DNA of 64,000 bases from an uncultured Oscillospiraceae bacterium (GTDB lineage Bacteria; Bacillota; Clostridia; Acetivibrionales; DTU013): the NCBI GenBank assembly GCA_964587755.1, contig CAZPMC010000002.1, forward strand, positions 58,514 through 122,513. Reading direction: 5' to 3'. The notes beneath the pieces were generated by a model. That model searched no databases. It was given only the letters and a program-made list of their open reading frames with translations, and had not been told where the DNA came from. The position numbers and the translations under genes are program-made. Positions 6-18,576 of this stretch are shown here, piece after piece. How positions within the stretch are numbered: the stretch's first letter is position 1; each line of letters starts with the position of its first letter.

Positions 6-1064
6 TCATTCTCCCCGCTTAAGTTCAATCATTTCCAGACTCACCGGGGTGCCGGATTTTATATCATACTTTGCCTTCTTCCCTATTATATCCTTTAAGT
101 ATTTTGGCTTAATTCCATATCCGGGCCTTACACTCCTGACATTTTCATTGGTTATCGTTTCGCCTTTTTTTATGTCTTTTGCAGTAAATAAGGAACGCCT
201 GAAAACAATACTTTCTTTTTCCCTTTCAGACAAGTCATAACACACTTCTCCTTTTGCCGCAACAGCCGCCCTTATGTCTCTGACCATTGCGGAAAACTCC
301 TCCGGTTCCAATGAAAAAGCAGAATCAGGGGTTTTTATTTCACGACTCAGGCAAAAATGCTTCTCAATAACGCTGGCGCCAAGGCTCACGGCCACCACGG
401 CGGCAAGGCTTCCCATAGAGTGGTCGGAAAATCCTACCGCCACACCGAAGCGTTCTTTCATATCAGGTAAAACGGCAAGGTTCATATCCGGATAGTTGGC
501 AGGATACTCACTTAAGCATTTAAGTAGCACTATCTGCGTATTTCCTTGTCCTTTGCATGCATCAACTGCATCCTGAATATCTTCAACTGAACCCAGCCCG
601 CAAGAGATTATCATTGGCTTACCTTTACCAGCCGCGTACTCTATTAAAGGAATATCCACCAACTCAAATGAAGCAATTTTAAAAAACTCAACACCTAGCT
701 CATCTAAAAAGTCAACTGCGGTCCTATCAAAGGGAGTGGACAAAAAATCCAGTCCCACTTTATCACACTCATTCTTTATAGCCGGATGCCACTCCCATGG
801 TGTATAGGCTTCCTTATATAAATCATGCAGCTTGTATCCGTCCCAAAGGCCGCCCTTGATTTTAAAATATTCATTATCACAATCAAGAGTCAGTGTATCG
901 GCAGTATAGGTCTGAATCTTCAGACAATCTGCTCCTGAGTCCTTCGTAGCCCGTACTATCTCCAAGGCATTCTCCAATTCGCCTGCGTGATTGGCCGACA
1001 TTTCAGCAATGATATATACCCCGCCGGAGTTCACTTTGTCAAATAATTTCATATTCATCACCAT
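6..1064 (-). CDS. pseI: pseudaminic acid synthase (NeuB/PseI family)
   Basis: 352-aa ORF. IAEMSANHAG...GADCLKIQTY motif is typical of PseI-type nonulosonate synthases, with a C-terminal SAF-like tail (VRSVRPGYGIKPKY). ATGGTGA start/stop overlap with the upstream ThDP-enzyme gene. ATG at 1052 is an alternative start. pseB lies in the same operon. Confidence 0.85.
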   Translation of the reverse strand: MVMNMKLFDKVNSGGVYIIAEMSANHAGELENALEIVRATKDSGADCLKIQTYTADTLTLDCDNEYFKIKGGLWDGYKLHDLYKEAYTPWEWHPAIKNECDKVGLDFLSTPFDRTAVDFLDELGVEFFKIASFELVDIPLIEYAAGKGKPMIISCGLGSVEDIQDAVDACKGQGNTQIVLLKCLSEYPANYPDMNLAVLPDMKERFGVAVGFSDHSMGSLAAVVAVSLGASVIEKHFCLSREIKTPDSAFSLEPEEFSAMVRDIRAAVAAKGEVCYDLSEREKESIVFRRSLFTAKDIKKGETITNENVRSVRPGYGIKPKYLKDIIGKKAKYDIKSGTPVSLEMIELKRGE

Positions 1065-2848
1065 AACATATTTTTATTATGCTCATCCAAATCTATAAAC
1101 GGATACAAATACTCAAGCTTTGACGAAGAAAAGGTCCCATCCGGATGTGCAATGGTTTTAGACTTTGGAATCTCGTCAAAGTTAATAGAACCCCTAACTT
1201 CACATAAAACTGGCCGGTCATTGTTCATAACTCTATCCAGTACTGAGTTAATTTCATCATTTGACCTTATTACGTAATAATCTAGCTTATATGTGCTTGC
1301 GATGGAACCCATGTCAGGAAAATCTAATCCGCATTCTTTACTGCACCCTGAGTAATTTGAATTAAAGTTGTTTCTCTGCATGGCGAAAATCGACGCATAG
1401 CCGGAGTTAGAATAGACAAAAAGCTTTATTGGCAGCTTGTATGTATTTATCAATGCTAACTCTTGAATATTGTGTTGAAGGCTTCCATCCCCCTCCATCA
1501 CTATTGTGCGTTTTTTACCGCTGGCAATACAACTGGCTATTGCGCTTGGTACACACCACCCCATTGAACCCAGACCCATTGATGTAATAAATCTTTGCCC
1601 TCTTTTTATTTTCAATGCCATATGGGATATCCCGCATGTGCGTCCTGAAGAAGAGCCGACCACTACATCCTCTGCTGTCAGGTAATCCGAAAGCTTATGG
1701 GCAAACGCAAATCCATCAACCAGACCTTCATTATCAAATGGCTGCACTTCCTTACTTAATGGATATTTGGCCTTGATATTCATACAGTAATTAAGCCAGG
1801 CATCCCTTGACTTAGTGATATACTTATCATTATTTTTTACTATTGATTCAATAAACACACCAGCATCTGCATTTATTTTTAAATCAAACGGTATTGCCGA
1901 CTTATTAATCTCATTATAATCAATGTCTACAATTACTTTGACAGCATTAGGGGCGAAATTATTTTCCGCATAAGCTGTAATAGCAGGATTAAGCCGGCTG
2001 CCGATAATAAGTAAAAAATCCGAGTTTTGAAGGACATAGTTTGAATAACGGGGAGCAGGTATGCCACAAGAACCCATAAACAACTCGTCATCGTCGCCAT
2101 AGATTCCTTTTGCCCTCCATGTAGCCAGCACAGGAATTTTAAACTCCTCCATTAATTGACGAAGTGCCTCCCCCTTGCCGCATGCAACAACACCATGTCC
2201 CATTAATATAGCCGGTCTGTCCGCATTATTTATAAAGTCAAATACTTTTGATATTACATCCTTTTCAACAGTATACTTTTTGACCAATCCTTCCGCTTCC
2301 GGGTCAAACCCTCTTAATCCACCCGGCTCAATCCGGCTCCCCTGAATATCAAGGGGAATATCGATCCAAACAGGGCCGCGTCTTCCGTGAGTTGCCAAAA
2401 ATACGGCTTTTTCAAGATGATACCTTATATCAGCTGCATCCATGACCGTAACAGCATATTTTGTTATAGGTGTAACTACAGGAACTATTGCAATTTCCTG
2501 AGCCCCGAACTGGCGTAGACCCTTTAGCTGTCCCATGTCTGCTATTTTTGTCTGACCGGATATGTACAGTACCGGATTTGAATCAACCCAGGCACCGGCA
2601 CAGCCTGTTACTGCATTTGTGGCTCCAGGACCAGTTGTCACCAGGCATGCCCCAAGATGGTTAGTATATTGGGCATAACTGTCAGCGCATATCCCTGTAG
2701 CCTGCTCATTTAAATTGAAAATCAGATTCAAGCCTTCTTGCTTTGCAACACTATCAAGCAGATGCATAATACCTCCGCCTGATATTAGGAATAAATCCTT
2801 GATGCCGTTTTCCACCAGGAATTTTGCAACATAATCCGATACTTTCAT
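1058..2848 (-). CDS. thiamine-diphosphate-dependent enzyme, acetolactate synthase large-subunit family (YerE-like candidate)
   Basis: 596-aa ORF. N-terminal Pyr domain (LVTTGPGATNAVTG) and C-terminal ThDP/Mg motif (MEGDGSLQHN...VYSNSGY). It is embedded in the sugar operon rather than next to ilv genes. Confidence 0.8.
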   Translation of the reverse strand: MKVSDYVAKFLVENGIKDLFLISGGGIMHLLDSVAKQEGLNLIFNLNEQATGICADSYAQYTNHLGACLVTTGPGATNAVTGCAGAWVDSNPVLYISGQTKIADMGQLKGLRQFGAQEIAIVPVVTPITKYAVTVMDAADIRYHLEKAVFLATHGRRGPVWIDIPLDIQGSRIEPGGLRGFDPEAEGLVKKYTVEKDVISKVFDFINNADRPAILMGHGVVACGKGEALRQLMEEFKIPVLATWRAKGIYGDDDELFMGSCGIPAPRYSNYVLQNSDFLLIIGSRLNPAITAYAENNFAPNAVKVIVDIDYNEINKSAIPFDLKINADAGVFIESIVKNNDKYITKSRDAWLNYCMNIKAKYPLSKEVQPFDNEGLVDGFAFAHKLSDYLTAEDVVVGSSSGRTCGISHMALKIKRGQRFITSMGLGSMGWCVPSAIASCIASGKKRTIVMEGDGSLQHNIQELALINTYKLPIKLFVYSNSGYASIFAMQRNNFNSNYSGCSKECGLDFPDMGSIASTYKLDYYVIRSNDEINSVLDRVMNNDRPVLCEVRGSINFDEIPKSKTIAHPDGTFSSSKLEYLYPFIDLDEHNKNMLW

Positions 2849-2888: not shown

Positions 2889-4346
2889 TTATTCTCTTAA
2901 AAAAACACCTAATTCTCTAAATTTACCGGTTCCAAATGTGTTACATATTTTTTCATAGCGTTTAAAGGTAGAGTTCTCCAATATCCATTTTTTCTCGAAT
3001 TCGCTCTCATTGCCTGATTCCCAGAATAACATATCCTTCGTAACGCTATCAATGGTCCTGATAAGTTCAAATGCCAGTTCCGTATGAAGATGCCAATAAA
3101 GCACTGTAAATAAAAAAGTAATATCATATTTTTCAGATTTATCTATCTCTTGAATTCCGCAGTTTATATGATTTATACCGTCACAGTATAATAATTTGTT
3201 TAAATTGCAGGCTACCTCATAGCTTGTTTTATCAATTTCAATAGCTGTAACATCAGCCCCCATACGGTACATATGCTGTGAAAAATAACAAACGTATGAA
3301 CCGGCATCAAATATCCTTTTACCCTTTACATCGATATTATTTTTATAAAAATACTCACATATTGTTTGAAGCCTTGTTTTCCCGCACTCCTCTCTCTTAC
3401 ACGGGAAGCTGAAAAATGCCGGGTGGGGTATGGGAGTATAGACAAAGCTTAAATTGCCTTCATTTATTGCATTAAGGCACGGCTCAATCCTGTCTTCATT
3501 TATCCATTTTTCATAATCCTCTTTGCTGACAGAACACATAACCTTGCCTCTATTCTTGGCAACATTATAAATTGCATACCTGAGCGAATCCTGTATGATA
3601 AAACGGCCTTTATCCCATGAGACTTTGGGCGGCAAATCATTATCTTTATTAAAATCACTATTTAATGAAAAATGCTTAAAATAATTCCTTTCTACCTCCA
3701 TCCAACGCTCCCAGTCATTGTTGATGCCATTTTTCAAGAAATAGCTTTTCAAAAAATCTGTGTTTTCCTTTCCTTCTAAAAAATTATAAAAGGGCAACAA
3801 TGGTATTGCCTGATACACTGAAATCAGCTTGTTGTTTTCTTTATAAAATAACAGTTCGGCTGGGATGAAGACCTGATATGTCCCATTCCCGGCATCTTTT
3901 ATGTAATTTTTAATATATGATTTATCTTTCTCAATTTGCTCCTTGTTTTCAATTAATATGCCCTCTATTGCCCTGCCGGCTTCCAGACAATCATAAACCT
4001 GCTTCATGCTTTCATATGAGTCTTCACATGATGCATCTGTTTTATAAATCAGATTCCTATATCCCAGTTTGTTTAGGTAAGTGGCTACAAACCTATGCTC
4101 CTGATGATTTGTTATTGCCACAATAACAACCACTGACTCTTTTTGCTCCCTTGTGATGACATCATTGTCTGGTACTAAAATTGGGATACCTAATGAATCT
4201 TTAAATTTATTTGCATCCTTATCTAAAAATGCAATAACCTTGTACCCCTGCCTTGATATAGCATTGTACAGCTGCCTCCCGATAAAGCTCGCACCATAAA
4301 TTATGAACTCTTTTTCCTTACTGATTTTAAAACTATTATTTTTCAT
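2889..4346 (-). CDS. hypothetical three-domain protein (paralogue A): N-terminal Rossmann-like module, central domain, C-terminal class I methyltransferase-like fold
   Basis: ORF 2889..4361. The ATG at 4346 is preferred (GAGG 9 nt upstream) and overlaps the stop of paralogue B as ATGAAAAATAA. N-terminus is FIIYGASFIGRQLYN...YKVIAFLDKD. The C-terminus has an FkbM-like motif I (RIFDAGSYVCYFS), an acidic beta-2 end (TAIEID) and DITFLFTVLYW. Shares KEDYEKWIN, YTPIPHPAFF and ILENSTFKRY blocks with paralogue B. Function unknown. Confidence 0.7.
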   Translation of the reverse strand: MKNNSFKISKEKEFIIYGASFIGRQLYNAISRQGYKVIAFLDKDANKFKDSLGIPILVPDNDVITREQKESVVVIVAITNHQEHRFVATYLNKLGYRNLIYKTDASCEDSYESMKQVYDCLEAGRAIEGILIENKEQIEKDKSYIKNYIKDAGNGTYQVFIPAELLFYKENNKLISVYQAIPLLPFYNFLEGKENTDFLKSYFLKNGINNDWERWMEVERNYFKHFSLNSDFNKDNDLPPKVSWDKGRFIIQDSLRYAIYNVAKNRGKVMCSVSKEDYEKWINEDRIEPCLNAINEGNLSFVYTPIPHPAFFSFPCKREECGKTRLQTICEYFYKNNIDVKGKRIFDAGSYVCYFSQHMYRMGADVTAIEIDKTSYEVACNLNKLLYCDGINHINCGIQEIDKSEKYDITFLFTVLYWHLHTELAFELIRTIDSVTKDMLFWESGNESEFEKKWILENSTFKRYEKICNTFGTGKFRELGVFLRE

Positions 4347-5781
4347 AGACCCCAACCTCAACTAATTTACCTTCAATAAATTCCATATTTAAGAAATGAT
4401 ATTTTTTAAATCCACTATTTTCAAGAATATACCTTTTTTCATATCCGGCTTCGTCAAATGACCGCCAAATAAAATACTTAGCTGATAATCTATCTATTTT
4501 TTCAAGTAAAAGCTTAGCTTCTTTCCCGGTACTTAAATCCAAAAGCATATCATTTGCCAAGATAACAATATCATATTTTGTTCCTTCGTCCAGTTCAAGA
4601 AAATCCATATTTCTCATGTCAATATCAATTGTGTTGTGTAGTTTATTCAGCATAACGGCAAGCTTAAAAAGCAAATGTCTTTTTTCTACTGAAACTATTT
4701 TCCTAACACCCATTCTTGAAAACACTTGCGAATAATATGACAGGTTTGAATTTAGATCTAATATGCGGTATCCCTCTACACTCTCCCTGCTAAAGAACTT
4801 GTACAAAGCACTGCTTGTAAGCCTGCCCCTGTTTTCGGTCACACTGTCAATATGAAAAAATCCGGGATTGATAATCGGCGTATATGTCTTTTCAATATTA
4901 TGCTCCTCCATATATTTCTTACACTTTTGTGCCCATTCACTGTTTAACCACTTGTCATAATCCTGCTTTGTAATCTTAATCGGTATAGTGTAATTAAGCA
5001 TGTTGGTAAGAAATACAGCTCTATGGTGTCCATCTGTCAAATTAAAATAACCCCTTGAATTCCATTTCGCAAATGAAGGAGAGCTTCTGAAAAACAAAAT
5101 ACCCTTTTGCCCATATTCCTTTAACATCATATCAAACAACTGGACTCTATCCTGTAAAAAGCTTTCAATGGTTCTTTCCGTTCCACACGTAATATCACAA
5201 TAGCGCAAAAAATCGTCAAAATTCTTAGTCTGCCCTTTTAGAACCAGTTCACAAACCGCATTATATTCATTTAATGCAGAAATATTTCTTTCTACTTTTG
5301 TAGCGCTAAAAATTATTGTATTTGGTACTTCTGTTACAATATACTCACCTGTTTGACAATAGTATAAGGACTTTGTATCTTCACATGCTAAATGGGTATA
5401 TGGAAATTCATAATCATCAATGCCCTCTCCATATACAAGGCTGTTATATGCCTCAAAATGCTTTTTATACATTGAATTACTACTTCTGTTAAGATAAATG
5501 ATTTTGTCGGCTCCCTTATCATAGAGAATTTTTGCTATCCTCTCCTGCTCAAGTATATTCTGGAATGTTAAAATAATTATGTGCTTCATATGTTCTTCAG
5601 TTAATTCTTCAGGAGGGATTATGGCAACACCGGGATCTATATTTAATTTATTTGCATTCTTATCAACAACCCCTGTTACTTTATAGCCTTTCTTAATTAA
5701 CTTGTTATATAGATTTCTTCCTGCTTCCCCATACCCATAAATAAGAATTAAAGCGTCTTTATTAAACTTAAATGTATTCAT
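4336..5781 (-). CDS. hypothetical three-domain protein (paralogue B): Rossmann-like N-terminus, ParB/Srx-like DGHHR segment, methyltransferase-like C-terminus
   Basis: ORF 4336..5802. The ATG at 5781 is preferred (GGAGAA 7 nt upstream) and overlaps the pseB stop by 14 nt. N-terminus is LILIYGYGEAGRNLYN...YKVTGVVDKN. Central segment is FNLTDGHHRAVFL...IPIKI (nt 5020..5034 encode DGHHR). C-terminus has RILDLNSNLSYYS, VSVEKR and DIVILANDML. Function unknown. Confidence 0.7.
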   Translation of the reverse strand: MNTFKFNKDALILIYGYGEAGRNLYNKLIKKGYKVTGVVDKNANKLNIDPGVAIIPPEELTEEHMKHIIILTFQNILEQERIAKILYDKGADKIIYLNRSSNSMYKKHFEAYNSLVYGEGIDDYEFPYTHLACEDTKSLYYCQTGEYIVTEVPNTIIFSATKVERNISALNEYNAVCELVLKGQTKNFDDFLRYCDITCGTERTIESFLQDRVQLFDMMLKEYGQKGILFFRSSPSFAKWNSRGYFNLTDGHHRAVFLTNMLNYTIPIKITKQDYDKWLNSEWAQKCKKYMEEHNIEKTYTPIINPGFFHIDSVTENRGRLTSSALYKFFSRESVEGYRILDLNSNLSYYSQVFSRMGVRKIVSVEKRHLLFKLAVMLNKLHNTIDIDMRNMDFLELDEGTKYDIVILANDMLLDLSTGKEAKLLLEKIDRLSAKYFIWRSFDEAGYEKRYILENSGFKKYHFLNMEFIEGKLVEVGVYEK

Positions 5782-6796
5782 TAGGGCGTTCTCCGCAATC
5801 AAAATACAAATTTTCTAGCTCCTTTCTCAACCCATCAACATCTAACCATTCCTTATTTGTTTCCGAATTGTACTCAAACCCCTCGTTCACCAATACCCCA
5901 TTTCCAATCCGGCTGGGCTCAAGCTTCCACCAGTCAAAATGGGGATATATGATATAATGCTTTTCATATTCATAAGTTAATCTGGAGTCATCTCCCGTAA
6001 TCATTACTTCATGCAGCTTTTCACCTTCTCTGATTCCTATTGTCAGAATCTTGGCACCCGGTAACATAGCCTCAGCCAAATCTGTTATCCTAAATGAAGG
6101 TATCTTTGAAATGTAAGTCTCGCCTCCGTTAGATTCCTCCAGAGCTTTTAAGACCAATTCAACACCGTTTTCAAGTGTAATCCAAAAACGCGTCATCCGA
6201 GTGTCGGTAATTGGCAGTTCCTTTTCTCCTCTTTCAATAATTTTTCTGAATATTGGTATGATAGAGCCACGGCTGCCGGCAACATTGCCATATCTTACAA
6301 CTGAGAATCTCGTATTGCTGATTTTACTGTACGCATTAGCAGAAATAAACAGCTTGTCCGATACCAGCTTCGTTCCTCCATACAGATTTATCGGGTTTAC
6401 AGCTTTGTCGGTAGATAGTGCCACTACCTTCTTTACACCCCTGTCGATGGCGGCATCTATTACATTTTGGGCTCCATTAATATTTGTCTTGATGGCTTCA
6501 AACGGATTGTATTCGCATGTAGGCACCTGCTTCATAGCAGCAGCATGAATAACATAATCAACCTGGTCAAAGGCTCTGTACAATCTGTCTTTATCCCTTA
6601 CATCACCTATAAAAAATCTTACATTTGACAGATCATATTTTTTTTCATATTCTGCCTTCATAACACTTTGCTTATATTCATCTCTTGAATAAATTATAAT
6701 TCTATGAGGCTTATATCTATCAAGAATCATCTCCAGAAATTTTCTGCCAAAGCTTCCTGTACCTCCAGTTATTAGTATTGTCTTTCCGTTTAGCAT
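5768..6796 (-). CDS. pseB: UDP-N-acetylglucosamine 4,6-dehydratase (inverting), PseB/FlaA1 type
   Basis: 342 aa. Motifs: ILITGGTGSFG, IIIYSRDEYKQ, catalytic YGGTKLVSDK, VRYGNVAGSRGS. Length and motifs fit PseB, and pseI is in the same operon. Confidence 0.85.
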   Translation of the reverse strand: MLNGKTILITGGTGSFGRKFLEMILDRYKPHRIIIYSRDEYKQSVMKAEYEKKYDLSNVRFFIGDVRDKDRLYRAFDQVDYVIHAAAMKQVPTCEYNPFEAIKTNINGAQNVIDAAIDRGVKKVVALSTDKAVNPINLYGGTKLVSDKLFISANAYSKISNTRFSVVRYGNVAGSRGSIIPIFRKIIERGEKELPITDTRMTRFWITLENGVELVLKALEESNGGETYISKIPSFRITDLAEAMLPGAKILTIGIREGEKLHEVMITGDDSRLTYEYEKHYIIYPHFDWWKLEPSRIGNGVLVNEGFEYNSETNKEWLDVDGLRKELENLYFDCGERPNEYI

Positions 6797-6830: not shown

Positions 6831-7733
6831 TCATTGATATAATAATGAATACATATCTATCCCTTTTTCGTTATTTTGATACCAAATATATAAGTCGCGT
6901 ATTGCATCTTCTATAGGTGTAAAAGAAAAAGTTTTCATTTCGTTTAAAAGCCTTTGATTACTTGCTGTATATTCGTTTGCTAAACCTTCCCTGCAGACAT
7001 AAATGGGTAGCTCCTTACCGCTGACTTTCTTTATGATATTTGCTAGCGAAATAAGATCTATCCTTCTTCCTGATGTCACATTATAATCCTTATACTTAAC
7101 ATCATTGCAAATAAACCATTCTACTATTCTACAAAAATCATCAATATAGAGATAATCAAAGTATACATTCTGTCTGATCGTAATGGGCAGATCCTTCACT
7201 GCCTTACAGCATGCCCCTGAGATAAAAGCCTTTTTCCAGTTCTCATACCTTCCGAACAAGCCAAATATCCGCAGATTATATATGTTTTTGCTATGTTGTA
7301 TAGATTTATTTATTATGTATTTATAAAGGCCATAATCAGTCGCGGGTATTCCGTTTCCGGCGTCTTCCTCACTGATGCTGCAAATTCCATTGCGTTTATC
7401 AAATTCAGCACCTGAACCGAAATACAACATTTTTCCGAATAGGCTCTGATATCTCTCAAAATTGAAAAACATTCGCAGGTTTTTATCCAATTCCTTTGAT
7501 GGATCTTTTGTAGCATCTGCTCTTGGATTGTACACACCAGCATGTATTATTACATCATAATACTGTTTTTCAAGCATCTCTTTCACAGCTTGTTCATCTG
7601 ATACATCTAATTTGCCGCTTGCCGGTGCAAATATCTCATATGAATCCTCTTTCTTCTCCAAAAACTCCTTAAGATTGCGTCCTATAAACCCTGACCCGCC
7701 AATCAGCAAAATTTTCCTCATAATTCTCACCAT
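6831..7733 (-). CDS. NAD(P)-dependent extended SDR (sugar nucleotide 4-ketoreductase/epimerase type)
   Basis: 300 aa. LLIGGSGFIGRNL glycine motif and catalytic YGLYK (YxxxK). ATGGTGA overlap with the rfbF stop; an alternative ATG is at 7721. Size resembles CDP-abequose/paratose synthases, but specificity cannot be read from the sequence. Confidence 0.7.
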   Translation of the reverse strand: MVRIMRKILLIGGSGFIGRNLKEFLEKKEDSYEIFAPASGKLDVSDEQAVKEMLEKQYYDVIIHAGVYNPRADATKDPSKELDKNLRMFFNFERYQSLFGKMLYFGSGAEFDKRNGICSISEEDAGNGIPATDYGLYKYIINKSIQHSKNIYNLRIFGLFGRYENWKKAFISGACCKAVKDLPITIRQNVYFDYLYIDDFCRIVEWFICNDVKYKDYNVTSGRRIDLISLANIIKKVSGKELPIYVCREGLANEYTASNQRLLNEMKTFSFTPIEDAIRDLYIWYQNNEKGIDMYSLLYQ

Positions 7734-8500
7734 ACCTTCCAGGGTGCCTGGTTAGAATGCCACAGATTTTCCAGTATGTTTTTGTCCCGGATTGTATCCA
7801 TTGGACGCCAGAAACCATAATGCTTGTATGACATCAATTGCTTTTCGGCCGCTAGATTCTCAAGAGGCTCCTTCTCCCATATGGTTTCATCCCCGGAAAT
7901 GTAATCAAATATCTTCGGTTCCAGCACAAAAAAACCCCCATTAATCCAACTGCCGTCACCAACCGGTTTTTCAACAAAGGATGCCACTTCATCCTTTTCG
8001 TTAATATTAGCCAAGCCAAAACGTGCCGGTGGCCGTACCGCTGTAAGAGTTGCTAACCGCCTGTTTTTCTGATGAAATTCTATCAGTGCATTGATATCAA
8101 TATTGCCTACACCATCCCCATATGTCAGCATAAAGGTTTCATTCCCGATATACTCCTGTATACGCTTAACCCTTCCGCCTGTCATGGTGTGAAGTCCAGT
8201 ATCCACAAGTGTGACTTTCCATGGTTCCGCTATGTTGTTGTGAACCGTCATGCTATTCCCGCATGCAAAATCGAATGTAACATCACAGTTGTTCAGATAA
8301 TAATTTGCAAACCACTGCTTTATTACATTCTGCTTATAACCACAACAGATTATAAATTCATTGAAGCCATAAAAAGTGTATATTTTCATTATGTGCCACA
8401 GAACCGGCTTGTCTCCGATTTCTACCATAGGCTTAGGTATTAAGTGACTTTCCTCAGAAATCCGTGTTCCGAACCCGCCTGCCAATATAACTACCTTCAT
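7727..8500 (-). CDS. rfbF: glucose-1-phosphate cytidylyltransferase
   Basis: ORF 7727..8527. The ATG at 8500 is preferred (AGGGAG 6 nt upstream) and gives 257 aa. MKVVILAGGFGTRISEES...PKPMVEIG and YGFWRPMDT are typical of RfbF/DdhA. Confidence 0.88.
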   Translation of the reverse strand: MKVVILAGGFGTRISEESHLIPKPMVEIGDKPVLWHIMKIYTFYGFNEFIICCGYKQNVIKQWFANYYLNNCDVTFDFACGNSMTVHNNIAEPWKVTLVDTGLHTMTGGRVKRIQEYIGNETFMLTYGDGVGNIDINALIEFHQKNRRLATLTAVRPPARFGLANINEKDEVASFVEKPVGDGSWINGGFFVLEPKIFDYISGDETIWEKEPLENLAAEKQLMSYKHYGFWRPMDTIRDKNILENLWHSNQAPWKVW

Positions 8501-8552
8501 GCTTATCTCCCTCTCAAAGTTATTCACTAATAACAGGGGCTTTAAAAAATGT

Positions 8553-9893
8553 CTAGCTTCTATGAATAGATTCCCTTATAGCCTGAGCTATATAATCAAT
8601 CATTTCATCTGACATTCCGGGGTAAATACCAACCCAGAAACTATTCGACATAATAATATCAGTTTCCTCCAATCCCCCCACAATTCTGTACCCCTCCTGC
8701 TTTTTTCTCATTTCATCAAAGCAAGGATGTCTTGTAAGATTCCCTGCGAAAAGCATTCTAGTCTGAACACCTTTGGACTCAATATGCTGTACCACCTTAT
8801 TTCTGTTTATCCCGTCCCTTAATGTAATTAAAAACCCGAACCACGATGGCTTGGAATCCGGACACGCTTCAGGCAATATCAGCCGGTCTTCCTCATCTGA
8901 AAGGGCAGTCTTTAATCTGTCGAAGTTGTGTCTTCTTTTTTCGACAAATGAATGAATTTTCTTTAGCTGGGCACAGCCAATGGCTGCCTGCATGTCGGTT
9001 GCTTTGAGATTATAACCGAAATGGGAATATACATATTTATGGTCATAGCCAAGGGGCAGTTCACCGTACTGTCTGTCAAAACGATGCCCACAGAGGTTGT
9101 CGCTGCCGGACGGGCAGACACAATCACGGCCCCAATCACGGAAGGAACGGATTACCTTATTAAGTAAAGGGTTATCCGTATAAACTGCTCCGCCTTCTCC
9201 CATTGTCATATGGTGCGCAGGATAAAAGCTGCTTGTACCTATATCCCCAAATGTTCCTGTCATTTTGGTCACACCGTTCATTGTGTACAGTGAACCCAGC
9301 GCATCACAGTTATCCTCTATCAACCACAGGCTGTGTTTATTGCAGAATTCTTTCACCCCGCTTATGTCAAATGGATTTCCCATGGTGTGTGCAATCATTA
9401 CAGCCTTTGTCTTATCCGAGCACGCTTCCGCAAGCTTTGATACGTCGATATTGTACTGTGGGATAGTCACATCGACAAAAACCGGAACAGCACCAAATTG
9501 AATAATTGGTGTTACAGTAGTAGGGAAGCCTGCAGCAACTGTTATGACCTCATCCCCATGTTTGATCGCTCTATCTGCCAGCAGCGGGGAAGTAAGCGCA
9601 CTAAACGCAATTAAGTTAGCAGAGGAACCTGAGTTGACAAGTGTGCAGTACTTAATGCCAAGATACTTAGCAAATTCCTTTTCAAATTGTTCCGTATATC
9701 TTCCGCAGGTTAGCCAAAATTCTAGTGAACTATCTACCAAATTAACTACTTCTTCATGATCGTAGACTCTTTTCGCATACGGAATTTTATCGCCATCTTG
9801 ATATGACATCCTTATATGGAATGCCTTACAATATTCTTCAACCAACTTGAGTATTTCTTCTCTTGCTTGGGATTCGTTTTTATTTTCAAACAT
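8553..9893 (-). CDS. rfbH: CDP-6-deoxy-4-keto-hexose 3-dehydrase (E1, RfbH/DdhC/AscC type; PMP and Fe-S dependent)
   Basis: 446-aa DegT-fold protein. The Schiff-base Lys is replaced by His (SFYPAHHMTMGEGG, H227/H228). Cys cluster is C196...C258-x-C260-x7-C268 (RDCVCPSGSDNLC). The start abuts the rfbG stop (TAAATG). Confidence 0.88.
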   Translation of the reverse strand: MFENKNESQAREEILKLVEEYCKAFHIRMSYQDGDKIPYAKRVYDHEEVVNLVDSSLEFWLTCGRYTEQFEKEFAKYLGIKYCTLVNSGSSANLIAFSALTSPLLADRAIKHGDEVITVAAGFPTTVTPIIQFGAVPVFVDVTIPQYNIDVSKLAEACSDKTKAVMIAHTMGNPFDISGVKEFCNKHSLWLIEDNCDALGSLYTMNGVTKMTGTFGDIGTSSFYPAHHMTMGEGGAVYTDNPLLNKVIRSFRDWGRDCVCPSGSDNLCGHRFDRQYGELPLGYDHKYVYSHFGYNLKATDMQAAIGCAQLKKIHSFVEKRRHNFDRLKTALSDEEDRLILPEACPDSKPSWFGFLITLRDGINRNKVVQHIESKGVQTRMLFAGNLTRHPCFDEMRKKQEGYRIVGGLEETDIIMSNSFWVGIYPGMSDEMIDYIAQAIRESIHRS

Positions 9894-10958
9894 TTAGCTG
9901 CCTCCACTGTTGATAAACTCATTAATCTGTTTATCCATACAGACTCTTACATCTTCACCTCTCATCCAGCACTTAGACCACTCAACGGTTTTCTCAACCG
10001 CTGTTCTCAGGTTCCAATGGGGCTTCCAATTGAATCTCCCTTTTAGCTTGGAGCAGTCCAGCTTTAAAAATTTAGCTTCGTGAGGGCCGTCAACAATCTG
10101 GCTAACCCACCTTATTCCTTCTCCCCATTTTTCTGTGAATAAATCCACAAGGTCACCTGTCTTATAGCAGTCCCATTCATCAGGACCTATATTGTAGCTT
10201 CCTGCATAGCCTGGATCCATATATTGCTTTGCTGCGATCATAAGATATGCATAAAGCGGGTCAAGCACATGCTGATAGGGACGTACAGAGTATGGATTCC
10301 TGACAGGAATATCTCTTTTTTCAATAGCTGCCCTAACACAATCAGGGATAATCCGGTCCTTAGCAAAATCACCGCCGCCAATAACATTACCGGCTCTTGC
10401 AGTTGAAACAGCCACATGGTTATCAGCTAAAAAAGAGCTCTTATAACAATGAGTAACAAGCTCTGAGCAAGACTTGCTGTTTGAATACGGATCGGCACCG
10501 GATATGATATCAGTTTCCCTATAGCCCCATTCCCATTCTTTATTTTCATATACCTTATCGGTTGTAACATTCAGAAATGACTTAACAGTGTTTGATAGGC
10601 GTATACACTCAAGAATATTCACTGTTCCTAAGACATTAGTTTCATATGTAAATCGTGGGTTTTTATAGCCTTCACGAACGATTGGCTGTGCTGCAAGGTG
10701 AAAAACTATTTCAGGTCTGGCTTTGTTAAAGGCATTCTCAAGGGAATTAAAATCTCTAATATCTCCTATAACTGATACAACATCCTCTTTTATGCTTGCA
10801 ATCTCAAACAATGACGGATTTGTAGGTGGTTCAAGTGAATACCCTGTAACGTGCGCACCTAAATTGACAAGCATTTTGCAAAGCCATGATCCCTTGAAGC
10901 CGGTATGCCCTGTCACAAAGATTCTTTTGTTCTTATAAAATCTTAAGCAATCCGTCAC
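9894..10958 (-). CDS. rfbG: CDP-glucose 4,6-dehydratase
   Basis: 354 aa. FYKNKRIFVTGHTGFKGSWL signature and YSNSK catalytic motif. Syntenic with rfbF and rfbH. Confidence 0.88.
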   Translation of the reverse strand: MTDCLRFYKNKRIFVTGHTGFKGSWLCKMLVNLGAHVTGYSLEPPTNPSLFEIASIKEDVVSVIGDIRDFNSLENAFNKARPEIVFHLAAQPIVREGYKNPRFTYETNVLGTVNILECIRLSNTVKSFLNVTTDKVYENKEWEWGYRETDIISGADPYSNSKSCSELVTHCYKSSFLADNHVAVSTARAGNVIGGGDFAKDRIIPDCVRAAIEKRDIPVRNPYSVRPYQHVLDPLYAYLMIAAKQYMDPGYAGSYNIGPDEWDCYKTGDLVDLFTEKWGEGIRWVSQIVDGPHEAKFLKLDCSKLKGRFNWKPHWNLRTAVEKTVEWSKCWMRGEDVRVCMDKQINEFINSGGS

Positions 10959-10977: not shown

Positions 10978-13900
10978 TTAGTCTAGATTATACAAATTGT
11001 CGAAAAATCTAGCTACATCGTAAATATTATCAATTCCAAACTTAGACATATCTATCCTAAGGGCATTTGCCTCAGATAAGAATCCTTTCTGGTAATAGAG
11101 CTTATTTGGCCTTTTTTCAAGGAAATTCCTGTTATAACAATAGCTATCATCAAACCACTGTTCAAGCTCTCTATCGTTGTGTGCCTTAATTACCTCACGA
11201 ATGTTATTCAATTTTTCACTAAAGCCGGCCTCATCATTTTTTATGAACTCAGCCCACACAGCAAAGAACTTTTTCCACTTCACCATGCTTAGGTCCCAAT
11301 TATTAATGCCCTTTTCAATAATTCTCAGAAACTCGATAACCAATAGCTTACTATCATGGTTTACTTTATGAGGAATGTACTTATTAGTGTATTGTTCATT
11401 GAATTTATCACGCAATTTAAATGCATCCTGCAATACCTGCTTGTTTGCCCCGGTTTGTGATGCAAATCCGACACTGTTTTGAGACATCCCAGCAATTACA
11501 ATCGGATGCATAATATAGAGAATCTTATCAAACAGTGCAAGATTCATCAGACCTGTATAAACATCCTGTGTCAAGCCACCAAGGAATACTCCGGTTTTAT
11601 CTATAAAATCCTTAATTACACTTCTATGTATCGCAGAGTTTATATAGGCCATAGGCAACATGTACAATGATACATCTAAATTAAGTATTTGTCTGAGCAG
11701 CATATCACTATCCAAGTACGATAAATTGACATTTTTGTCTTTTCGATACATCCTGCTTACAAAAAATAGGTTTTCCTGGGATTTGTCAGATACTCCCGGC
11801 CAACAGTAAAAAAGCTTATCCCAAAGAATAACCTTTTCATTATTGTATCTGTCAAGTATTCTGCTAAGGAAATCCAAAGAATGAAACAGCAGAGCATCAT
11901 CAGAGCCCAAACCAAAGATATATTCTCCTTGAGTATTCAAATATGCGAATTCAAAGCTCTTTACCAATGAGAGCTCCGTATCAGGCCTTATATACCTTAT
12001 TTTTCCATTGTCCAGTTCTTTTACCAGCCTTAAGGTTTCATCATTACCCGGTGTGCTGTTATCGCTTACAACAATCTCATAATCATCAAAGCTTTGGTTG
12101 ATACATGTCATCAATGTATGCCGCAGGTATTTTGCACTGTTTCTTGTAGGTATAACAACACTGAAAAGCTTGCTGCTTTTGCTTATTGACTCTATGAGAT
12201 TAACATTGTAAAGCTTTTTGCAATAATCAGAATATCTGTTTATATTCTCCTTATAATCCCCCTCATCGCTATGAATGGATTTAAAAGATTGATTCTTCTG
12301 TTCCGCCGGCTCTTTATAGAAAATGCTTCTTAGCTCCCTTAATTCAGGCGCAAGCTCATCAAGACTCTTTTTTATCTCTAAACCGTTTTCACCTAATACC
12401 CGTATAAAATAAGCTTCGTTTATTTCACCCGTCAGATATGAAATTAATTCAGCCTCAAAGCTTTCACCAAATCCATATAGCTGTTGGATTAAGGCCGCTC
12501 TATCCCTCATCCATTTCGGTACTTCTTCTTTGTCAGCTATACCAAGCTTCAAACAATAATAGCATGCTATTGCCTGTGAAATAAGTCCAAGTGCAAATTT
12601 AGCATTAGAAAAAGTTCTACTAAGCGTTTGATCTGATATTCTTCTTACATGAACAAGTGATTCGGTTGTTCCAATTTTCATTTTTCTATTAGCTGCAAGC
12701 ATCCGTGACAGCATCACAAAATCTTCTGAAACAATAAACCCTCTTGATTCTCTTGACAGAGCATGCTCTTTCAGTTTTTCAGTAGCTCCAGTCGCACCTC
12801 CTGCAAGCATTGCTTTCATTTCACTTTCAGATGCCAGCCTTCTAAGTACATCCTCAGCCAGACAATCGTCATAGCATTTTCTGTCATAACCAAGTGATAA
12901 AGTATCATCTGATAGATTGATAAGATATCGCGGAATAATCAGTAGATGCTCATTTTTTAGCTGCTCTATGTCAATTTTTGATTGACTTTGATCTAGACAA
13001 AATAACATATCATCATCATCTAAAAATGTGGTAAATTGGGTTTCAATATTCTGCAATCCTACAAACCGTGTTTGAGCAACACCGTCATTTACAGGTTTCC
13101 TAATAACCTTAGCACGATAAACATTTTCATTATCTTCTATTTTTTCAAGCCACTGTATCTCCTGTGTTGAGCAATCATCCACAATCAGCTTTGGCTGCTT
13201 TCCAAGCTTCAGTCCTTTGTCCAGGTCATATTTCATCATTTTTGCCCGGTTGTAGGAGGGTATCAATACAGTAAGGTCCTCATGCATAAGCTCTTGCGGC
13301 AATTCTTTTTCCAAAATTATATCCTTTATTCTGCCGACAAGCTCCTTAAACGACAATAATTCTTTAAATAAATCATTTATCAGCACTAACTGCTTCTTTA
13401 AAGAATAATTATTTTCAATAAATGCCCTATATCGTTCAGATTCATATTGTCCCTTAGTAATAGCCTCAACCGCCTCATCCACCGTGTTGAATAAATACTC
13501 CTCGCTCCAGATATCATTTGCATACAGGAAATCATGAATTACTGGCTTTATTCCTCTTGCCATGGCTTCTGCAATGCCATATCCAAAGCTTTCATGAATA
13601 CTTGCCGACACAAGATAGTTTTTATCTGTAAGCCATGTGCTGATGTCCTTTTGCCATCCATCAAAAATTACGTTTTTTTCCAGGCCCATTCTTTTGACCT
13701 GGTATTCCCAGTAAAGCTTGATAACCTGTTCCTGGAAGTAGCCTGCCACATACAATTTATACCTTTTATCTATACGGACTAGCTTTTCAATGATTTGCAA
13801 TAATAGTGCCGGGTTTTTACGAGAATGGATATATCCGACCATTGCCAGATTAAACCCGTGAGAGCGGTTTTTAAATGGGTAGCGGTTTACATCGACCCCA

Positions 13901-14685
13901 TTTTCGATGACAACTGTCTTCACCTTATCTGTAATGCCGGGAAAGTTAATCTTAAGAATCTCTCTGAGATGCTCTGTAACTAGTATCAGCGTGTCGACAT
14001 TTTCCCAGGTAACCCTACCAGGATATTCAGTAAATGCTTCATATCTATGGAGTCTGCAAATAACCTTCTTCTGATATGCTATAGGCCGGCTGCTTCCGTA
14101 TTCAATAAGCTCATCACACCACTCAAACCAGCAGATATCAGCCCACTCCATACCTGCATCAATTTGCTCGAAGTCGCTGACTGTAATTTTTCTTACCCAA
14201 TAATCATCAGAGATTCCTATGATGATATCTTCAAAAAAGTTATTCATCCCAGCCTTGACAAAGAAAACAATCTTGGCTCTTTCCTTTATCTCAATACCTT
14301 CATTAGACGCCTTTATTCGTTCAATAGCCTCACTGATACTTTGTTTTTGAATATCCTCATATGCAACCGTTTCGGCTTTAAGGTATAAATCCACAGCATC
14401 CTGAGCTTTTCCCTCAAGCTCTCGGATATAAGCAAGATTAAATAGCAAATCGAATTGGACAGTGTCTTCTGAAAGCCCCTTAACCAAAACATCCTCAGCC
14501 TTATCAAGAGCTCCTTCAATTATATGAATTACTGCTCTCATGCTGCAAATTTCAATATCTCCCGGTATGATTTTATCGTAATCGTCCAGGGCCTCCATTG
14601 CTTCTTTCAGATGCCCTTGTTCAATCCACTTCTCAATTTTCCCTTTTACCGATTTCATTTTTCTCTGTATTTCAGCATCATTCAT
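10978..14685 (-). CDS. multidomain glycosyltransferase: TPR-like N-terminus, GT4 (Glycos_transf_1) domain and two GT2 domains
   Basis: ORF 10978..14733. The ATG at 14685 is preferred (AGAGGA 8 nt upstream; ATGAATGA overlap with the upstream stop), giving 1235 aa. GT4 motif is HESFGYGIAEAMARG. The first GT2 is VLIPSYNRAKMM...LIVDDCST...FLDDDDML. The second GT2 is VVIPTRNSAKYL...IVVSDNSTPGNDET...GLGSDDAL. Confidence 0.8.
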   Translation of the reverse strand: MNDAEIQRKMKSVKGKIEKWIEQGHLKEAMEALDDYDKIIPGDIEICSMRAVIHIIEGALDKAEDVLVKGLSEDTVQFDLLFNLAYIRELEGKAQDAVDLYLKAETVAYEDIQKQSISEAIERIKASNEGIEIKERAKIVFFVKAGMNNFFEDIIIGISDDYWVRKITVSDFEQIDAGMEWADICWFEWCDELIEYGSSRPIAYQKKVICRLHRYEAFTEYPGRVTWENVDTLILVTEHLREILKINFPGITDKVKTVVIENGVDVNRYPFKNRSHGFNLAMVGYIHSRKNPALLLQIIEKLVRIDKRYKLYVAGYFQEQVIKLYWEYQVKRMGLEKNVIFDGWQKDISTWLTDKNYLVSASIHESFGYGIAEAMARGIKPVIHDFLYANDIWSEEYLFNTVDEAVEAITKGQYESERYRAFIENNYSLKKQLVLINDLFKELLSFKELVGRIKDIILEKELPQELMHEDLTVLIPSYNRAKMMKYDLDKGLKLGKQPKLIVDDCSTQEIQWLEKIEDNENVYRAKVIRKPVNDGVAQTRFVGLQNIETQFTTFLDDDDMLFCLDQSQSKIDIEQLKNEHLLIIPRYLINLSDDTLSLGYDRKCYDDCLAEDVLRRLASESEMKAMLAGGATGATEKLKEHALSRESRGFIVSEDFVMLSRMLAANRKMKIGTTESLVHVRRISDQTLSRTFSNAKFALGLISQAIACYYCLKLGIADKEEVPKWMRDRAALIQQLYGFGESFEAELISYLTGEINEAYFIRVLGENGLEIKKSLDELAPELRELRSIFYKEPAEQKNQSFKSIHSDEGDYKENINRYSDYCKKLYNVNLIESISKSSKLFSVVIPTRNSAKYLRHTLMTCINQSFDDYEIVVSDNSTPGNDETLRLVKELDNGKIRYIRPDTELSLVKSFEFAYLNTQGEYIFGLGSDDALLFHSLDFLSRILDRYNNEKVILWDKLFYCWPGVSDKSQENLFFVSRMYRKDKNVNLSYLDSDMLLRQILNLDVSLYMLPMAYINSAIHRSVIKDFIDKTGVFLGGLTQDVYTGLMNLALFDKILYIMHPIVIAGMSQNSVGFASQTGANKQVLQDAFKLRDKFNEQYTNKYIPHKVNHDSKLLVIEFLRIIEKGINNWDLSMVKWKKFFAVWAEFIKNDEAGFSEKLNNIREVIKAHNDRELEQWFDDSYCYNRNFLEKRPNKLYYQKGFLSEANALRIDMSKFGIDNIYDVARFFDNLYNLD

Positions 14686-16642: not shown

Positions 16643-16971
16643 TTAGTCAGGCAATCCTGCCAGTACGTAAGCAAATCCTTAATCTCAAACTCCATAATAT
16701 CTGAAAAAAGTGCTGTATCGGAGCTTCTTAACGCTTCAGTAAGCATCTCCAGCTTCTCTGTAAATTCCATCAAATCAATACCTGTGAAATATCCACCTAT
16801 GGCAGCAATGCCCTCAGCCAGCGCTTGCATGTCCTCTAGCAGATTTCCTAATCTTTCTTGATCCACTGAGCCTTCATTTCTGCAACTAATAATAATATCG
16901 TCTATTCTCTTGTTAATGTTAACGATAAGCTCAATAACCATCTGCTTTATTGCAATAATCTCGTTATTCAT
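16639..16971 (-). CDS. hypothetical small acidic helical protein
   Basis: 110-aa ORF with an AAGGAGG RBS 6 nt upstream. 4-nt ATGA overlap with the GT2-TPR gene. First gene after the flagellin terminator. No recognisable motif. Confidence 0.55.
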   Translation of the reverse strand: MNNEIIAIKQMVIELIVNINKRIDDIIISCRNEGSVDQERLGNLLEDMQALAEGIAAIGGYFTGIDLMEFTEKLEMLTEALRSSDTALFSDIMEFEIKDLLTYWQDCLTK

Positions 16972-17002
16972 CCTCTACCTCCTTAGTTTTTCTTTATTAT
17001 AC

Positions 17003-17033
17003 TAAAAGAGGCTCTGGTTAACCAGAGCCTCCT
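17003..17033 (-). terminator. rho-independent terminator after flagellin copy 1
   Basis: Minus strand reads GAGGCTCTGG-TTAA-CCAGAGCCTC followed by TTTT (10-bp perfect stem), 18 nt after the stop at 17051. Confidence 0.8.
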
Positions 17034-17050
17034 TTGATAACAATGATTTA

Positions 17051-17755
17051 CTATCTGAGTAATGCCAATACGTTCTGAGGCGCTTGATTTGCCTGAGCAA
17101 GCATAGCAGTACCAGCTTGGATGAGAATGTTGTTCTTTGTAAAGTTGGACATTTCCTCTGCCATATCAGCATCTCTGATACGCGATTCTGCAGCCTGAAG
17201 GTTCTCTGCCATTGTCTTGGTGTTCCTTACGACTGACTCCAGCTTGTTCTGAGTAGCACCAAATGCGGATCTTTGTCCGTTTACTGTTGTAATAGCAGCA
17301 GCAATACTAGCTGCAGATGAAGATGCACCTACTGTAACAGCTGTGCCAAGAACCGTTGTTCCGTTGAATTTTGTGTTAGTGTATATGTTTGTAATTGCAG
17401 ATCCCAATGAGGTCATTTCAAGCTTAAGGTTGTTCTGATCCGCACTAGCGAGAGTTGTGTCATTCAACTGCTCTGCCAGCTCTGTCAGTCTGACCAGCAT
17501 ATTGCTGACTTCATCCAGCGCACCTTCTGCTGTTTGAATCATTGAAATCTGATTCTGTGAGTTTCTTACTGACTGATTGAGCTGTCTGATCTGAGCCCTC
17601 ATCTTCTCGGAAATTGATAAACCTGCTGCATCATCTGCTGCACGGTTTATTCTTTTTCCTGATGAAAGCTTCTCCATGGACTTAGCAGCCGCTGCATTTG
17701 TGTTATACAGCTGGTTGCGGGTGTTAATTGCAGTAATGTTGTTGTTTATAATCAT
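17051..17755 (-). CDS. fliC: flagellin (short, D0/D1-only type), copy 1
   Basis: 234 aa. N-terminus is MIINNNITAINTRNQL...GKRINRAADDAAGLSISEKMRAQIRQL. C-terminus is ESRIRDADMAEEMSNFTKNNILIQAGTAMLAQANQAPQNVLALLR. Confidence 0.95.
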   Translation of the reverse strand: MIINNNITAINTRNQLYNTNAAAAKSMEKLSSGKRINRAADDAAGLSISEKMRAQIRQLNQSVRNSQNQISMIQTAEGALDEVSNMLVRLTELAEQLNDTTLASADQNNLKLEMTSLGSAITNIYTNTKFNGTTVLGTAVTVGASSSAASIAAAITTVNGQRSAFGATQNKLESVVRNTKTMAENLQAAESRIRDADMAEEMSNFTKNNILIQAGTAMLAQANQAPQNVLALLR

Positions 17756-17760
17756 AGTTA

Positions 17761-17800
17761 AATCCTCCTTGAGTTTTTATAACCGGGAATCCTTTCCCGA
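17761..17800 (-). promoter_or_regulatory. flagellin copy 1 leader: GGA-loop hairpin plus SD (candidate CsrA binding sites)
   Basis: Minus strand reads CGGGAA-AGGA-TTCCCG (17784..17799), then AAGGAGG 8 nt before the ATG. Same architecture as the CsrA-controlled hag leader of B. subtilis. csrA and fliW are adjacent. Confidence 0.55.
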
Positions 17801-17863
17801 TCTCCTGCCGGTTAGACCGGCTTCCAGTTTTTATTTGTTAAATTCTTCAGAACTAATGCTTTA

Positions 17864-18571: not shown

Positions 18572-18576
18572 AGTTA

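Follow-up and report, generated by a model that had tools for sequence, protein, structure and literature searches.

What is the function of two adjacent genes, here called paralogue A and paralogue B, that lie between the pseudaminic acid gene pseB and a gene for a thiamine diphosphate (ThDP) enzyme in a 64,000-nucleotide stretch of contig CAZPMC010000002.1 (the window), from an uncultured Oscillospiraceae bacterium? We found that both encode three-domain proteins, in which a domain matching the ParB/sulfiredoxin (Srx) fold stands between an N-terminal Rossmann-like module and a C-terminal class I methyltransferase fold, and that, as judged from their motifs, the loss of sites is reciprocal, with B lacking the glycines of methyltransferase motif I and A lacking the GxxR motif of the ParB/Srx-like domain. 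The proteins appear to be of known kinds in a new combination, namely a ParB/Srx-methyltransferase fusion that was recruited to glycan biosynthesis and there split into complementary subunits, and A and B are probably partners in the decoration of a flagellin sugar. The two genes are:

4336..5781, minus strand: paralogue B, 481 amino acids, start at ATG 5781 (MNTFKF), the subunit bearing the ParB motif.
2889..4346, minus strand: paralogue A, 485 amino acids, start at ATG 4346 (MKNNSF), the putatively methyltransferase-competent subunit.

The list of open reading frames (ORFs) extends both genes from upstream TTG codons, B to 4336..5802 and A to 2889..4361. We set the starts at ATG 5781 and ATG 4346 because public gene calls and homologue alignments agree on them, the public proteins of 481 (P0001) and 485 amino acids (P0031) being identical to B and A over 99% of the query. 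The start of B (5781) then overlaps the end of pseB (stop at 5768) by 14 nucleotides, with a GGAG upstream of B, and the start of A (4346) overlaps the end of B (stop at 4336) by 11 nucleotides, in agreement with a preliminary description of this DNA in which the genes, given without their strand, overlapped each other and pseB. The ThDP gene begins 40 nucleotides past the A stop, where a GAGGAG site is found. That description had also called the genes clear paralogues, and B and A are indeed 27% identical from end to end (BLASTP, E = 8e-47), with all of the quoted sequence blocks present. Its impression of AT-richness was likewise borne out by windowed calculation, the G+C content of B (0.329) being the minimum among 1.45-kb stretches of the window (mean 0.401, standard deviation 0.026) and that of A (0.348) lying at the third percentile; of the two spot counts first given, 12/60 was correct and the other line has 34/60, not 35/60.

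Monomer models obtained with AlphaFold2, using an alignment of 56 family sequences, were confident for both B (predicted local distance difference test, pLDDT, 90.9; predicted TM-score, pTM, 0.80) and A (pLDDT 91.3, pTM 0.89), with the same order of domains and elements in each. Conservation and confident folds together ruled out A and B as pseudogenes. The proposed three-domain architecture largely held, being recovered in profile, Pfam and Foldseek matches as well as in the models; residues about 110–240 form a sheet plus helices without a match to anything. The domains and motifs, with SAM denoting S-adenosylmethionine throughout, are as follows:

5479..5778, minus strand: N-terminal Rossmann-like domain of B (YGYGEAG, D47), of the PglD_N/C2185-like_N type.
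4903..5082, minus strand: ParB/Srx-like core of B, strand-strand-helix-strand-helix-helix.
5020..5034, minus strand: DGHHR of B, the GxxR phosphate-binding (P) motif with G258 and R261, translation checked.
4339..4782, minus strand: C-terminal methyltransferase-fold domain of B, motif I changed to DLNSN (4744-4758), strand-2 acid E373 kept.
4026..4337, minus strand: N-terminal PglD_N-type Rossmann-like domain of A (PF17836, 7.6e-7, above cut-off).
3459..3632, minus strand: ParB/Srx-like core of A, GxxR lost (QDSLRY), fold kept in the model.
2892..3332, minus strand: C-terminal class I methyltransferase domain of A, with D352-A-G354 (3300-3308), E375 and W447-E-S-G450 (3012-3023).

The core of the middle domain lies at residues about 241–300, with DGHHR opening its first helix, and in the models the order of secondary-structure elements in the A core is that of the B core. 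When a profile of this domain, made from 38 members with less than 40% identity, was compared with all PDB sequences, the best match was SbnI (5uje, E = 2.6e-4) and the next two were also SbnI orthologues, with the SbnI matches aligned on (I/V)DGxHR...(I/V)P(V/I). Single-sequence Pfam scans of the same members gave PFIN for 19 of the 38 (best 1.8e-4) and ParBc_2 for five (best 1e-4), which we take to be families of the ParB/Srx clan; PBP-Tp47_a alone recurred besides these and was judged spurious. Human Srx, using a query sequence 100% identical to PDB 1yzs, aligned in register (hhalign, E = 0.0034), with PPIDVLW..FGGCHR..ETIPAKLV facing SPSFAKWN..TDGHHR..YTIPIKIT, and the canonical ParB Spo0J, with an unverified query sequence, was in register without being significant (E = 0.11). 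By these comparisons the middle domain matches the ParB/Srx fold, and the ParB/Srx motif that had been read in B from the letters alone is the DGHHR at 5020..5034; A, as also noted at that time, has no such motif at the equivalent place. The G and R of DGHHR are the sole invariant columns of the domain among the 38 diverse members, and in the A family the columns of the domain lack conservation.

In this fold, GxxR contacts the phosphates of nucleoside triphosphates (NTPs), and an R-to-A exchange abolishes nucleotide binding; the fold serves as an ATP module in SerK, SbnI and Srx, and the bacterial ParB-fold fusions to SAM methyltransferases that were tested bound ATP via GxxR (PMC12704722). 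The NTP specificity of the ParB-CTPase fold is not predictable according to the authors of that survey (PMC12704722), and neither Box I (the C motif) nor Box III of the fold could be located in our sequences. SbnI and SerK share with our middle domain both the DGxHR...(I/V)P(V/I) core and GxxR, and they are small-molecule enzymes rather than DNA clamps, as A and B are likely to be. They have, however, their own C-terminal substrate domain, whereas A and B have a methyltransferase fold after the core and a PglD_N-type domain before it; the similarity is confined to about 55 residues (SbnI 31-87), and the catalytic Glu is not mappable in A or B. For Srx, the core is in register with that of B but the match is weak, the catalytic Cys of Srx is absent in B, and context and partners differ.

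The C-terminal domain, at residues about 341–488, has a class I methyltransferase fold, and all of the top 50 Foldseek matches in the PDB were methyltransferases, for A as well as for B. Those of B included EvdMO1 (top match, 1.3e-7), CmoB and METTL5, all with E about 1e-7, and those of A included ChlM with SAM (6e-9), UbiG and the methyltransferase domain of WbdD (4.7e-8); XrdM/ToxA (8rdl) was matched by family profiles at 2e-5 to 2e-6 and by the A profile at 1.9e-6. In A, motif I reads D352-A-G354-S-Y-V-C, with the first Gly only, and E375 is invariant; in B it reads D-L-N-S-N-L-S, without any Gly, and E373 is invariant; in the single-copy relatives it reads D-I-G-C/A-N-I-G. Curated methyltransferase cut-offs were not reached by A and B (Methyltransf_31, 18 bits versus 27; TIGR04290, 30 versus 300), and a two-domain Paenibacillus homologue passed that of Methyltransf_23 (36.7 versus 27). 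Of the FkbM-style methyltransferase that had been suggested, the class I fold thus stood (1e-7 to 6e-9), but likeness to FkbM was seen only at the level of a motif in the single-copy relatives (D-I-G-A/C-N-x-G), and Methyltransf_21 (PF05050, FkbM) matched neither A, nor B, nor the Paenibacillus homologue.

Extending the analysis to the family at large, a profile search run exhaustively over 1.84 billion representatives (E<=1e-30) gave at least 625 clusters at 50% identity, and word-indexed searches found 30 relatives each for A and B. Among the 150 clusters listed, most members have 470–530 amino acids and match the profile over its full length, which implies the same architecture, and a minority of about 370 amino acids are without the N-domain. 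Scanning of genomes with the A-family alignment returned mostly two-domain Paenibacillus forms, and scanning of metagenomes with the B-family alignment short contigs only. The members carry no database names other than 'class I SAM-dependent methyltransferase', 'DUF1698 domain-containing' or 'hypothetical' and we found no literature describing them, in keeping with the earlier supposition that this is not a characterised family.

We then counted motifs in 211 sequences of the family. The ParB motif was scored by its G..R, and the methyltransferase motif by D/E-x-G together with the acid of strand 2. GxxR only was found in 147 sequences, the methyltransferase motif only in 34, both in 28 and neither in two, so that GxxR is kept in 175/211 and the methyltransferase motif is missing in 149/211. 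In the clade that holds the known single-copy proteins, which are the three-domain protein of locus L023 and the two-domain proteins of Paenibacillus and Fontibacillus, all 16 sequences had both motifs, plus WE[SCT]G after strand 5. The A clade (n=45) had the methyltransferase motifs in 42 sequences, WESG in 41 and GxxR in 11; in the B clade (n=35) every sequence had GxxR and not one the methyltransferase glycine. Sequence identity within the A family was 0.54 in the methyltransferase domain, 0.42 overall, 0.34 in the ParB core and 0.29 in the sheet-and-helix region, making the ParB core its least constrained recognisable domain, and the domains of the B family were nearly equal in constraint (0.58, 0.54 and 0.53). 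The idea that one copy may be degenerate was accordingly half right, A having lost GxxR, but not one copy only is affected, as B has lost the motif-I glycines. To judge from conservation, the working end that the family keeps invariant is the ParB/Srx site, with methylation an apparent add-on in some lineages; as there are pairs without any methyltransferase motif, methylation does not seem to be the core function of the family.

The pairing itself recurs. Wherever sequence downstream of a B-type gene was available, in nine loci (the window, L020, L021/22, L004, L005, a JGI contig, L027, L028 and L029), the gene was adjoined by a partner. The partners overlap at start and stop in the window, L020, L021 and L004, are separated by gaps of 51–61 nucleotides in L005 and the JGI contig, and in L001 have a peptidase M42 gene between them. 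In the window, L020, L001 and L005, an A-type gene has a B-type (or similar GxxR-only) gene as its partner. A second kind of pair is found in L021/22, L004 and L025, where the partner carries [SA][GA]KHR. Directly 3' of these second-kind pairs there is always a gene for an RlaP-type (Pol-beta-like) nucleotidyltransferase fold, which is absent from pairs with an A-type subunit; that the RlaP-like enzyme would there replace methylation by nucleotidyl transfer is pure speculation. The genes are:

L021, 10946-11806: RlaP-type gene.
L004, 12995-13885: RlaP-type gene.
L025, 10478-11329: RlaP-type gene.

The N-terminal Rossmann-like module spans residues about 9–110 in both proteins, and G23, G28 and D47 are kept across the whole superfamily. 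A NeuD/PglD-type N-terminus had been recognised by eye and was confirmed for A by Pfam PglD_N (PF17836; 30 bits versus a cut-off of 23.4) and by a match to the N-terminal 86 residues (2-87) of TIGR03570 (NeuD/PglB/VioB; E = 6.3e-10). The TIGR03570 NeuD match of B was weak (0.006), and PF22674 (C2185-like_N) matches are precomputed for members of the B family. NeuD and PglD sugar N-acetyltransferases have the same N-terminal domain as A and B, but their left-handed beta-helix (hexapeptide) acetyltransferase domain is missing here, the shared part being the nucleotide-sugar-binding module only; no Pfam Hexapep match was obtained for A or B, the TIGR03570 score was 39 bits versus a cut-off of 160.8, and a NeuD/PglD acetyltransferase identity was ruled out by the absence of the hexapeptide domain. 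In related glycan loci PglD_N/C2185-like_N also occurs fused to TylF methyltransferase, radical SAM, GT1 (glycosyltransferase), CTP_transf_like and Methyltransf_11 domains, and stand-alone, as a protein of 134 amino acids. Such fusions to varied sugar enzymes suggest a portable, shared module that may serve to bind nucleotide-sugars. The cases are:

L001, 6566-7573 and 12672-13682: PglD_N/C2185-like_N module.
L004, 1081-1485 and 7415-9937: PglD_N/C2185-like_N module.
L023, 6727-7836, 10542-11933 and 17870-19548: PglD_N/C2185-like_N module.

What pathway, then, could A and B serve? The surrounding genes of the window are:

6..1064, minus strand: pseI (pseudaminic acid synthase), TIGR03586 at 479 bits versus a cut-off of 340.
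1058..2848, minus strand: acetolactate synthase (ALS)-like ThDP enzyme, read as YerE-like, with three TPP domains.
5768..6796, minus strand: pseB (UDP-GlcNAc 4,6-dehydratase, inverting), TIGR03589 at 533 bits versus a cut-off of 408.
6831..10958, minus strand: short-chain dehydrogenase/reductase (SDR) of 300 amino acids with rfbF, rfbH and rfbG (CDP-3,6-dideoxyhexose branch), TIGR02623, NF011936 and TIGR02622 above cut-off.
10978..19387, minus strand: two large glycosyltransferases, from Pfam, and three tandem flagellin genes, identified by phmmer.
10978-14733, minus strand: the first of these glycosyltransferases, a GT1+GT2 protein of 1251 amino acids; the second is a GT2+TPR (tetratricopeptide repeat) protein of 654 amino acids.

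Read along the minus strand, the order is two flgK, flgL, DUF6470, three flagellins, GT2+TPR, GT1+GT2, rfbG, rfbH, rfbF, SDR and pseB, followed by B, A, the ALS-like ThDP enzyme and pseI. The syntenic locus L020 (1-14041) goes on to a sugar N-formyltransferase, pseG and pseC, and then to flaG, fliD and fliS. In view of this gene set and of the continuation into flaG, fliD and fliS, the locus is a flagellin glycosylation island. The N-formyltransferase takes the position of pseH, implying Pse5Ac7Fo as the pseudaminic acid (Pse) product. The ThDP enzyme was below every acetolactate synthase cut-off, and RfbF, RfbG and RfbH together with this enzyme and the SDR make up what we take to be the gene set of the yersiniose (YerE/YerF) branched 3,6-dideoxyhexose pathway; searching the literature on yersiniose or ThDP enzymes in flagellin glycans, we found nothing relevant. 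From about 16.9 kb down to position 1, no convincing terminator-like site was seen on the minus strand, the sole one being a weak hairpin inside gene A (3810-3793), and terminator-like sites numbered 3 in this region compared with 11.9 expected from shuffles, so that the genes from about 16.9 kb to the start of the window are likely to form one long operon. The three flagellins are very short, 234–235 amino acids with N- and C-terminal helical regions only (17051-19387), and upstream of them lie flgL, DUF6470 and the two flgK paralogues (20273-25418).

In eight paired contexts, the neighbours were a ThDP enzyme with an SDR in six, NeuB in six and RfbF in five, and the ThDP enzyme adjoins the pair in the window, L001, L005, L020, L021 and L025. 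The single two-domain Paenibacillus proteins belong to small glycosyltransferase operons without NeuB. The flagellin and nonulosonate link first suspected for A and B has thus survived in part: the genes do lie in glycan loci, commonly with the ThDP enzyme and SDR or NeuB, but the association is not specific, the Paenibacillus homologues being found among glycosyltransferases without NeuB.

From the observed paralogy, folds, motif pattern, gene order and gene context we infer a heteromer, its kinase chemistry, its substrate and the order of its steps, and our tentative proposal, to which we would give somewhat less than an even chance, is that B transfers a phosphate from an NTP and A methylates the nucleotide-sugar, with the logic of WbdD. 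The ancestor would have been a ParB/Srx-fold NTP-binding phosphotransfer domain, of the SbnI/SerK kind, joined to a class I SAM methyltransferase and often preceded by a PglD_N-type module for nucleotides or nucleotide-sugars, a form that would survive in the single-copy proteins. After tandem duplication the copies may have specialised, B retaining the GxxR (DGHHR) NTP site as its methyltransferase-like domain turned non-canonical, and A retaining the SAM and acceptor site (DxG, E375, WESG) and dropping GxxR. A and B, presumably translationally coupled, would assemble as a heteromer derived from a bifunctional homomer. In that complex B, with ATP or CTP, would phosphorylate a group on a nucleotide-activated sugar that the island produces, candidates being a Pse precursor or the CDP-linked branched dideoxyhexose expected from RfbF/G/H and the YerE-like enzyme. 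A would then pass a methyl group from SAM to that sugar or to the new phosphate, in the manner of the WbdD methyl-phosphate cap, and the N-domains would hold the nucleotide-activated sugar.

WbdD of E. coli O9a joins an NTP-dependent domain to a class I methyltransferase and acts with them on a glycan, which is the same functional logic as proposed for A and B, and its methyltransferase domain was among the Foldseek matches of A (4ax8, 4azs and 4azt, about 5e-8, 17% identity). That alignment covers the methyltransferase domain only, with 220 columns and a TM-score of 0.31–0.36 (either normalisation), and the match of WbdD to the A profile was weak (0.02). WbdD has a eukaryotic-like protein-kinase fold, not ParB/Srx, with a domain order reversed compared with A and B, and it is one polypeptide without a PglD_N module; neither Pkinase nor APH was matched by A or B in Pfam. 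It should hence be regarded as an analogue, not a homologue, outside of the methyltransferase domain.

Several results weigh against the phosphate-plus-methyl proposal. Pfam ParBc and the other Pfam gathering thresholds were not reached by the middle domain, and Foldseek with whole models returned methyltransferases only, the fold of this domain being drawn from profiles and from the order of secondary-structure elements. Motif I of A is itself non-canonical, only its first glycine remaining, and the C-terminal domain of B is as conserved (0.54) as the rest of that protein and keeps E373, so that B may still bind SAM or another ligand through it. In L005 the A-type partner keeps DGVQR, making complementarity a trend rather than a rule, and in the second kind of pair neither partner has an intact methyltransferase motif. 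Finally, NeuB was missing from the stretches seen on either side of family members in L004, L025 and Paenibacillus.

In a rival explanation, A and B would simply methylate sugars with SAM (O-, N- or C-methyl), each of them alone and without phosphotransfer, and the ParB-like and N-terminal domains would do no more than bind the nucleotide part of a nucleotide-sugar or mediate oligomerisation. The sole highly significant fold match is to methyltransferases, with the sugar O-methyltransferase EvdMO1 topping the list for B, which keeps its strand-2 acid and a conserved C-domain; Pfam methyltransferase thresholds are exceeded by the Paenibacillus homologues, whose annotation is of this kind, and 17 of 28 purified ParB-fold proteins bound no NTP in vitro (PMC12704722). 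Against this, GxxR is the most conserved feature of the family (175/211), the methyltransferase motif is missing in most of the counted sequences (149/211) and in whole pairs too, B has lost both motif-I glycines, and the solved structures nearest to the middle domain are those of kinases. We consider this explanation unlikely, though a serious contender. That A and B instead act separately on different steps or substrates, having diverged after duplication without any complex and with an adjacency that reflects operon organisation only, would fit with the peptidase gene between the family members in L001 and with the 51–61-nucleotide gaps in L005 and the JGI contig. The order of B and then its partner is, however, kept in 9/9 checkable loci, with overlaps in four of them (the window, L020, L021 and L004), and when each copy loses a different site, complementing the other, this usually marks a heteromer of homomeric origin. 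We regard separate action as rather improbable.

An absence in the island raises another candidate role. Neither CTP_transf_3 (PseF/NeuA) nor Maf domains were found in the scanned ORFs (window positions 1-38 kb) or in L020, nor do they appear for those related loci that come with precomputed Pfam lists, CTP_transf_3 being absent from the precomputed Pfam results of L001-L004 and L020-L025, and phmmer with a verified NmNeuA query had no match up to E<=1 in L001-L033 or anywhere in the 64-kb window; the syntenic L020 has pseB, pseC, pseG and pseI but not pseF. The preliminary description had rightly seen no Maf/DUF115 transferase, as there was no Maf match among the ORFs of the island, and had thought of A and B as transferases in its place, for which we found nothing in support. 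A Maf identity of A or B was ruled out, no PF01973 (DUF115/MAF_flag10) match being obtained at E<=1, and CTP_transf_3 (PF02348) gave no Pfam match in either protein. It could be imagined that A and B replace the missing CMP-pseudaminate synthetase and/or the Maf-type transferase, with the ParB fold binding CTP or CMP-Pse, but pseF may lie elsewhere in the genome, the family occurs without NeuB in the sequence seen (L004, L025 and Paenibacillus), and the large GT2/GT1 enzymes next to the flagellins are obvious transferase candidates. To our knowledge the catalytic ParB/Srx-fold enzymes (ParB, Srx, SerK/SbnI) transfer or hydrolyse a terminal phosphate, and we know of none that performs nucleotidyl transfer, which also speaks against such a replacement. 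We hold it to be quite improbable, and we hold the same of the related view that A and B serve in non-canonical activation and/or hand-over of a nonulosonic acid or branched sugar for flagellin glycosylation, instead of its decoration, which is suggested by the lack of a CMP-Pse synthetase or Maf in a Pse island together with the ParB/Srx 'CTPase-fold' and a nucleotide-sugar-binding module.

Least of all do we expect A and B to be nucleic-acid enzymes akin to the ParB-DNA methyltransferase fusions of phages and plasmids, a very remote prospect even if ParB-fold-methyltransferase fusions are frequent in phages (PMC12704722). No N6_N4, MT-A70 or helix-turn-helix (HTH) match was found in A or B, viral structures in BFVD matched the methyltransferase domain only (Foldseek), and in every locus examined the genes lie inside sugar-pathway operons; this context and the lack of DNA-methyltransferase or HTH domains ruled out a DNA/RNA methyltransferase-ParB fusion. 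The ParB-CTPase-fold/SAM methyltransferase fusions of that survey (PNAS 2025, PMC12704722) do combine both folds in one protein, as the A/B family does, but those of the Methyltransf_23 and N6_N4 types were phage-enriched and read as DNA methyltransferases, with the fold searched domain by domain and the fusions detected by way of recognised ParB domains. The A/B family differs in being below the Pfam ParBc threshold, in its glycan operons, in its third, N-terminal domain and in its complementary tandem pairs. As a partial test, three truncated gBlock translations from the primer table of that paper, with constructs not identified and one of them a methyltransferase-ParB fusion by sequence, gave no match to our middle-domain profile.

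The analysis defines a sizeable family, of at least 625 clusters, that so far was generically named, and places in sugar-modification operons a ParB/Srx-type nucleotide-binding module so far seen in DNA clamps, sulfiredoxin and serine kinases. Single-copy, putatively bifunctional forms and pairs with reciprocal losses provide a natural series for the evolution of heteromers from homomers, yielding the testable predictions of an NTP-binding subunit, a SAM-binding subunit and a mass lost from the flagellin glycan. Should the proposal of phosphate plus methyl be true, A and B would form a non-homologous analogue of the WbdD methyl-phosphate cap; should activation or hand-over be their role, they would open up a new enzymatic route instead of decorating a sugar. 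The flagellin and surface glycans of gut Bacillota are chemically diverse and mostly unsolved.

Some further features of related loci were seen. A relative of the GT1+GT2 protein of the window adjoins the two-domain Paenibacillus members, as an ORF of 874 amino acids in L012 and with 797 annotated amino acids in the plasmid record L026. In L021 the ThDP gene and pseC are separated by a gene of the bAvd/23S_rRNA_IVP family (13685-14050), the sugar operon being syntenic in other respects. In the pair-containing locus L025, finally, the ThDP enzyme is immediately preceded by an HMGL-like gene of 533 amino acids (1342-2943; 4-hydroxy-2-oxovalerate aldolase/isopropylmalate synthase-like), which hints at further carbon-chain chemistry on the sugar.

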